Source: Iphione sp. A-MEVVRFRX5
Taxonomy: Eukaryota
Direction of reading: 5' to 3'
Assembly: GCA_976226885.1 (NCBI GenBank)
Contig: OZ320320.1
Coordinates: forward strand, 83,514,001 to 83,578,000
Length of the DNA: 64,000 bases
Made by a program: the position numbers and the translations under genes. The notes beneath the pieces were generated by a model. The model made no database searches. It was not told the origin of the DNA and saw nothing but the letters and a program-made list of their open reading frames with translations. Numbering within the stretch: the stretch's first letter is position 1; each line of letters begins with the position of its first letter. Below are positions 2,203-2,754 of this stretch, piece by piece.

Positions 2203-2420
2203 GAGGAGTTCATCAAACATGTTCTGCTGCTGTACATAAACTATTATCGATATGTTCAATAAAATCACATCAATGTATGTATCAATGGATTAAGAAACAT
2301 ATTCCGCTGTTGTTCAATAAAAATTACATATCATAAAATTCACGTGTCTGACTCTTCATTTGATAATGATGCAATAACAAACCAAAAGAATCACTATACC
2401 TATTTTCACTATAATTAATC

Positions 2421-2498
2421 GAGGCCTCGATAGCTCAGTTGGCAAGATACTTGCATCTGGCCTTATAGATGGCGGGTTCGATTCCCGGTCGTTCCACA
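2421..2498 (+). ncRNA. tRNA-derived Pol III-type unit (A box + B box), not a canonical tRNA; partial copies at ~2515-2556 and ~2590-2620
   Basis: A box TAGCTCAGTTGG at 2430-2441. T-arm/B box CGGGTTCGATTCCCG at 2473-2487. Ends in ...TTCCA. The acceptor and D stems pair poorly. Confidence 0.55.
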
Positions 2499-2754
2499 AA
2501 AATAAACACTTCATTCTGGTCTTATAGGTGACGGGTTCGATTCCCGTTCGTTCCACAAATAAACCCGCCATTCTAAATTTGATAAAATAAATCGAGGCCT
2601 CATAGCTAGCTTAGTTAGGTTATTTTTAATTTTTCCAACATGTCACCTGAAAGTAGTCCGTCCATCGATCATATATCATTACGCCTAATTACCTAACAAC
2701 ATATCAAAAGTTATATCCCTCCGCCAAATAAACTAGTGCAGAGTATCGCTTGAA

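Follow-up and report, generated by a model that had tools for sequence, protein, structure and literature searches.

Known systems that come closest to the unit analyzed here are found in two viruses and one group of mobile elements. Adenoviruses, a virus group related to Polintons according to part of PMC11161782, encode VA RNAI and VA RNAII, which are about 160 nt long, contain an internal box A and box B, end at a T-run terminator and are closed by a terminal stem that joins their ends; the section of PMC7589676 on these RNAs gives a tRNA origin as proposed. Murine gammaherpesvirus 68 carries eight tRNA-like RNA polymerase III (Pol III) units, the TMERs, near one end of its genome, and an excerpt of PMC4337559 describes them as units of about 200 nt in which more sequence extends from a tRNA-like head to a T run. 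Among mobile elements, Helenus TRIMs keep a captured tRNA-like sequence near the element end, for which an origin by SINE insertion has been proposed in an excerpt of PMC10886601.

Here we describe a tRNA-like cassette near the end of a Polinton. A first-pass annotation of the window, by which we mean the whole 64,000-nucleotide stretch of DNA analyzed, had marked the cassette as a complete A-box/B-box unit followed by two partial copies. It had offered several readings, among them a Pol III RNA encoded by the element, B boxes used as insulators and an inserted tRNA-SINE head.

Results

The cassette lies inside the right end of a Polinton

The window begins inside an element of 17,687 bp, the left terminus of which is 14.7 kb upstream and the right end of which is at position 2961, where homology among 30 loci stops. 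Terminal inverted repeats (TIRs) together with a 6-bp target-site duplication are a hallmark of Polintons/Mavericks in the part of PMC8097293 that treats them, and both were found here. Moreover, the element encodes the expected protein-primed DNA polymerase B (pPolB; PF03175, E 3e-11) and retroviral-type integrase (PF00665, E 2e-15), as well as a packaging ATPase, a protease and a capsid protein. Adeno_IVa2 (E 4e-5) passed the cut-off, as did the pPolB and integrase matches, and the Peptidase_C5 and Capsid_N matches were weak and below the Pfam cut-off. The last open reading frame (ORF) had no Pfam match. Capsid-like homologues numbered 154, and 94 of the 96 scored capsid matches were free of stops, which marks the Polinton family of the window as young.

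The cassette (2421-2627) sits between the last ORF and the right TIR, about 130 bp to the inside of the latter, and this placement implies one cassette per element. The position agrees with the first-pass annotation, which had put the cassette between the probable terminus and the poly(A) signals that belong to the last ORF; the likely signals are two hexamers at 2258 and 2316. The coordinates of the features are given in Table 1.

Table 1. Features of the Polinton right end and of the cassette, in window coordinates
Feature	Position	Strand	Description
pPolB ORF, C-terminal part	2..514	+	774 aa ORF starting upstream of the window; PF03175 match (E 3e-11) on the upstream part
Last ORF of the Polinton	868..2202	+	444 aa; Pro/Thr-rich N terminus, Cys-rich C terminus
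Two AATAAA hexamers (2258 and 2316)	2258..2321	+	Likely poly(A) signals of the last ORF
Upstream conserved block	2384..2400	+	TATA-like word with the predicted start ~25 bp downstream; TFIIIB may bind here
5′ head	2421..2431	+	Predicted start and 5′ arm of the terminal stem; within a 14-bp palindrome (2418-2431)
A box	2431..2442	+	12.4 bits; host tRNA median 10.4, maximum 12.8
B box 1	2475..2485	+	In a T-arm-like hairpin; 19.3 bits; host median 18.4, maximum 19.7
Second B module	2508..2559	+	Tandem duplication, period 57-59; B box 2 at 2534-2544
Arm complementary to 2469-2478	2562..2571	+	Predicted inner stem; full complementarity in window-like copies only
Copy of the 5′ head	2591..2601	+	Forms the 3′ arm in the predicted terminal stem, opposite 2421-2431
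Orphan A-box-like stretch	2606..2620	+	Not followed by a B box; may fold into a small hairpin at the 3′ side
First T5 run after the A box	2623..2627	+	Predicted Pol III terminator; second T5 at 2630-2634
Right TIR	2755..2961	.	~207 bp, 98% to the left end; cassette outside the TIR
Target-site duplication	2962..2967	+	6 bp; second copy before the left terminus

Several other features of the element and its neighborhood were recorded. At L031, the polymerase region is split into a 577 aa ORF (6314-8047, with a C2H2 finger) and a 774 aa ORF (8190 onward, weakly Vsr-like). The genome holds at least several more Polinton lineages in which the pPolB frame is long and open; these other lineages have single pPolB frames of 1,000-1,700 aa, and the arrangement in L031 would reflect either splicing or a split gene. 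Inside the TIR, a perfect 10-bp inverted repeat with a 4-nt spacer (window 2865-2888) is kept in most copies and is possibly a factor site or a replication hairpin. The host DNA beyond the element contains a 37-bp tandem repeat in 25 copies (window 3801-4727), and an unrelated retroelement is represented by a reverse-transcriptase ORF at window 36770-37999 (PF00078, E 2e-24).

The cassette has intact promoter boxes and no cloverleaf

The complete unit that had been annotated at 2421-2498 was recovered, with an A box and a B box at the tRNA-like spacing of a type 2 Pol III unit. Both boxes are intact, as had been claimed, and score close to the host tRNA maxima in matrices trained on 90 A boxes and 78 B boxes of host tRNAs. 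When the window was scanned for A and B box pairs with the host-trained model, the cassette was the sole pair in positions 1-3000, and the other 61 kb contained none on either strand. A downstream run of at least four T residues is also present, such runs being common by chance in AT-rich DNA. The annotated second copy of the 3′ half corresponds to a 52-nt direct repeat (2449-2500 and 2508-2559, 87% identity) that includes a B box, and the third copy, of the 5′ part, is a degenerate copy of the head at 2583-2619. An A-rich tail follows each module, and three further AATAAA words lie inside the cassette, at 2501, 2558 and 2586.

One detail of the annotation was not upheld. The CCA at which the unit was said to end (2494-2496) occupies tRNA positions 71-73 rather than the added positions 74-76 and is altered in copies L074 and L078, and thus it carries no evidential weight. 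The Pol III unit likely extends past the CCA, as the first run of at least four T residues after the A box is the T5 run of Table 1.

Consistent with the annotated loss of the cloverleaf, ARAGORN found no tRNA gene in the window, the segment 2422-2497 folded like its shuffles (z -0.28), and the paired acceptor, D and anticodon stems of a tRNA were not found. Rfam returned nine matches at E≤10 with neither RF00005 nor a VA family among them, and those with small E-values were T-arms only, matched to tmRNA ends far below the gathering score. On the ARAGORN, Rfam and folding results together, we reject the identity of the cassette as a tRNA gene. A source tRNA was likewise not found among 99 distinct host calls (31 loci), the best of which had 49 identities over 74 nt, in a partial host set for which 63 of 55,547 candidates were scored.

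The cassette is present throughout the Polinton family

Were the cassette a host SINE inserted into one Polinton copy, as the first-pass annotation had considered, it would be absent from other family members. A search with a 236-bp cassette stretch gave 40 scored matches at ~100% among 492 candidates, and a 19-nt head motif had 357 exact matches in the genome. All 40 of the head-motif matches fetched from the first 100 listed aligned to the right end of the element through 2961, and the same right-end location was found for all 14 diverged cassette variants and for all 30 best matches. A further motif, independent of the cassette and located 60 bp upstream of it, had 472 matches, in a family of ~470 copies in the genome, and a spacer motif of the cassette had 493 matches with two mismatches allowed (8 for the control). 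Because 493 cassette-motif matches stand against 472 upstream-motif matches, the number of cassettes equals the number of elements. Among the first 100 listed upstream-motif matches, 75 had an exact head motif adjoining, 11 had lost the exact head or spacer but kept both boxes exactly, 13 had a cassette on reading, and 1 had a cassette displaced by an insertion. The position of the cassette is conserved, with the one displacement, in all 100.

A host tRNA-SINE would have many dispersed copies outside the element, and all 54 sampled matches were at element ends. Moreover, a free host SINE family fails as an explanation because there are as many elements as cassettes. Blastn gave no match to the cassette in one host tRNA-Ile or in five host loci that have the A box in common with it (L088-L092), which are likely tRNA-derived SINE heads. 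Given the family-wide presence, the matching counts and the lack of a free family, we reject a one-off host SINE insertion.

About 40 of the first 100 head-motif matches listed fall within 15 Mb at ~12-27 Mb of G000:C4, a dense cluster that includes more diverged copies and segmental duplicates and is possibly a region of low recombination.

The promoter boxes are conserved beyond their surroundings

Compared with the window copy, the right ends of the other copies ranged down to 73-79% identity. Most copies have two of the 58-bp B modules, the more diverged ones have a single module and L041 has three, and because module number varies from 1 to 3, the annotated second copy is best described as a tandem duplication. 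The distance from the head to the first T run after the 3′ hairpin was 143-158 nt in 20 copies, 205-211 nt in 81 and 268 nt in 1, in a sample of 103 that gives no frequency estimate. The T run after the 3′ hairpin was thus present in 102 of the 103 copies, the other one having no T run in the range searched, and an earlier T run was present in 3 of the 103.

Conservation was measured in 69 insertions, which are 74 copies minus 5 flank-sharing duplicates; L123, which has an insertion, and 29 near-identical best matches had been left out earlier. With CpG columns left out, variants common to at least three insertions were found in 0 of 20 box columns versus 66 of 270 other non-TIR columns (Fisher p 0.005). 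At the same threshold, 21 of 83 columns of the local flanks had such variants (p 0.006 against the boxes). The difference was also seen with variants common to at least two insertions (1/20 versus 89/270, p 0.005) and to at least four (0/20 versus 52/270, p 0.017), and all of these statistics are to be read with the columns not being independent. Single-copy changes per column were 0.50 in the boxes and 0.45 elsewhere. An equal single-copy rate combined with no shared box variants fits neutral decay after insertion and constraint in the replicating lineages. Many copies were picked by an exact A box; the 14 of 100 without exact matches were all fetched, and 13 were included.

Changes in the boxes do occur. 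L116 and L120, at different insertion sites, have a C-to-A change in the B-box core in common, and a CpG-type change in the core was present in 9 of 103 copies. Conservation also extends to the TIR and to the upstream block, in which columns 2384-2398 had variants in single copies only, and part of the constraint may therefore act at the DNA level. We conclude from the sequence comparisons that the cassette is a real, selected-looking Pol III-type unit.

Predicted fold of the cassette RNA

The segment 2421-2626 folded at z -3.5 with an 11-bp terminal stem that pairs 2421-2431 with 2591-2601. The head is palindromic and repeated, and thus the stem is not evidence alone. In that stem, pair 7-128 was paired in 19 of 19 one-module rows (U-A in 13, A-U in 3, G-U in 2 and U-G in 1), and its changes affect bases that are partners in the stem, not bases that are homologous within the repeat. 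The two-sided change at this pair is one event, represented by five rows from two insertions and their segmental duplicates, and the number of pairs with a two-sided change was not above shuffles (471/500). In the main helix of the terminal stem, predicted at 11 bp, 89.5% of cells were paired; 4 of 15 stem-arm columns had shared variants, and L074 has lost the 3′ arm. One-module copies folded at z +0.9 to -4.3 (median about -1.6), negative in 19 of 20, and their alignment fold contained short helices only.

The inner stem (2469-2478 with 2562-2571) is perfect in window-like copies only, and between copy groups its arm is changed at several neighboring bases. A single template switch could account for that difference, and we therefore set the inner stem aside as evidence of covariation. 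A GGGU-ACCC-like pairing was found in the youngest, window-like copies only, the 3′ arm being different in the others. We conclude that the modeled folds provide evidence for an RNA structure that is suggestive, not strong.

Search for the cassette in other Polintons

No unit matching the cassette model was found around 20 distant pPolB loci of the genome (10 kb on each side, 400 kb), both termini having been located for about 6 of the 20. Two weak A and B box pairs near the threshold were detected, relaxed ARAGORN gave noise, and pPolB identity was 21-31% where matched. Outside the genome, pPolB and capsid queries in viral contigs and a pPolB alignment in metagenome contigs yielded no confirmed locus. 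Three cassette-motif matches in metagenome contigs were rejected, as all were SINE-like heads with neither a pPolB nor a last-ORF match. An intermediate lineage was not found via a 59%-identical capsid homologue, for which the 96 scored matches, of 1619 candidates, were all at the ~59% that the family of the window gives.

Discussion

Having observed the anatomy of the cassette, its presence throughout the family and the conservation of its boxes, we propose how it would be transcribed, folded, acquired and used. The reading that we favor, which the sequence makes moderately probable, is that the cassette is a Pol III non-coding RNA unit encoded by this Polinton family. The recruitment of Pol III through TFIIIC and TFIIIB on internal boxes is well established. 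Here, host TFIIIC would bind the A and B boxes and place TFIIIB on the TATA-like block ~25 bp upstream. Pol III would start near 2417-2421, pass through the A-rich stretch and stop at 2623-2627. In the RNA, the 5′ head and its 3′ copy would close the 11-bp terminal stem, with a small hairpin and then a U tail behind it. The predicted ends are at about 2421 and 2626, and the predicted sizes are ~150 nt (one module), ~205 nt and ~268 nt.

The strongest of the alternatives, which we nonetheless regard as unlikely, is that a tRNA pseudogene or SINE head in an earlier element has been copied along passively without function, its hairpins arising by slippage and template switching in replication. 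The A-rich tails after each module resemble those of retroposed copies, yet the cassette has no free host family, and no host tRNA among 99 distinct calls is closer than 49 identities over 74 nt. Passive copying would also explain why module number drifts between 1 and 3, why the inner-stem arm differs as if by one template switch, why two insertions have a B-box change in common and why, among the loci scanned, one lineage only has the cassette. It fits poorly with box columns free of shared variants (p ~0.005) and with boxes near the host optimum though the cloverleaf is gone.

Next in rank, and improbable as well, the boxes could be kept as TFIIIC DNA sites, with any RNA a by-product. TFIIIC barrier sites exist, and a barrier or insulator located between the last gene and the TIR could shield both from host silencing or stop read-through. 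Sites of this kind would predict the same conservation of the boxes. A transcription unit, however, better accounts for the complete A box at its tRNA-like distance, for the TATA-like block and the T run, and for the paired change in the stem. In favor of TFIIIC sites, B modules have been gained with no accompanying A box, and nearly all of 47 two-module copies retain an intact B box 2; given the youth of the second module, that intact box says little. Finally, a role of the region in Pol II 3′-end formation or element replication with incidental tRNA likeness is very improbable, since it leaves the invariance of the A and B boxes unexplained and most copies already supply the last ORF with two separate hexamers, even though the AATAAA words of the cassette, the palindrome at 2418-2431 and the lack of both upstream poly(A) signals in L075 point toward it.

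The unit most likely derives from a tRNA gene or the head of a tRNA-SINE that an ancestral element acquired before today's subfamilies diverged, after which the cloverleaf would have been lost and the promoter kept. Because of that combination, the product would not be a tRNA. Purely by analogy, the most likely use of the RNA would be to tie up, through its abundance, RNA-sensing or small-RNA proteins of the host during the activity of the element, and a VA-like decoy is our best guess. A short terminal stem argues against a microRNA precursor, as a substrate of Dicer and Exportin-5. Thus, of what the first-pass annotation proposed, a Pol III-type unit fixed in the Polinton family stood, whereas the antiviral-decoy or microRNA role was supported by no test. 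A more general proposal, which we consider doubtful, is that Pol III small RNAs are encoded by Polintons in general: tRNA-type promoters would have been acquired several times, by separate lineages and just inside the element ends, and remodeled into decoys closed by a stem that act against host RNA silencing, a functional counterpart of VA RNA in the group related to adenoviruses.

A selected promoter in a family of ~470 copies would, if true, argue for an active phase of virus-like character in which the element deals with the RNA defenses of the host. The Pol III RNA, if made, would be a cheap marker of when Polintons wake and would bear on whether Polintons are true viruses. To our knowledge, Polintons have been described by their proteins. 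No report of a Polinton-encoded Pol III RNA was found in titles and the starts of abstracts, with most subscription papers and Repbase notes outside this literature. Term look-up found no passage on such an RNA in PMC8097293 and, in PMC8502044, a single reference to predicted tRNA genes, which belong to MELD viruses, whose replicases are different.

The cassette resembles a tRNA-derived SINE head or tRNA pseudogene in its A and B boxes at tRNA spacing, its T-arm hairpin and its A-rich tail but differs from a SINE head in that it has no free-standing family. Like Helenus TRIMs, the Polinton is a mobile element that keeps a captured tRNA-like part near its end; unlike in those elements, the terminal repeat does not include the unit. 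Because Polintons are copied as DNA, no short Pol III transcript can serve them as a template for transposition. With the TMERs, the cassette has in common a tRNA-like Pol III-type unit of ~200 nt near the element end, built of a head and then sequence up to a T run, but there is one unit rather than eight, and it has neither a cloverleaf nor conserved microRNA-sized stem-loops. With VA RNA, it has in common the internal boxes, the T run and a proposed tRNA origin. It differs in that its predicted terminal stem has 11 bp, most of them preceding the A box, in that it has neither a conserved long apical stem nor a conserved GGGU-ACCC central stem, and in that no VA family was among the nine Rfam matches at E≤10. 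We conclude that the cassette is laid out like the VA RNA and TMER genes and is a member of neither family.
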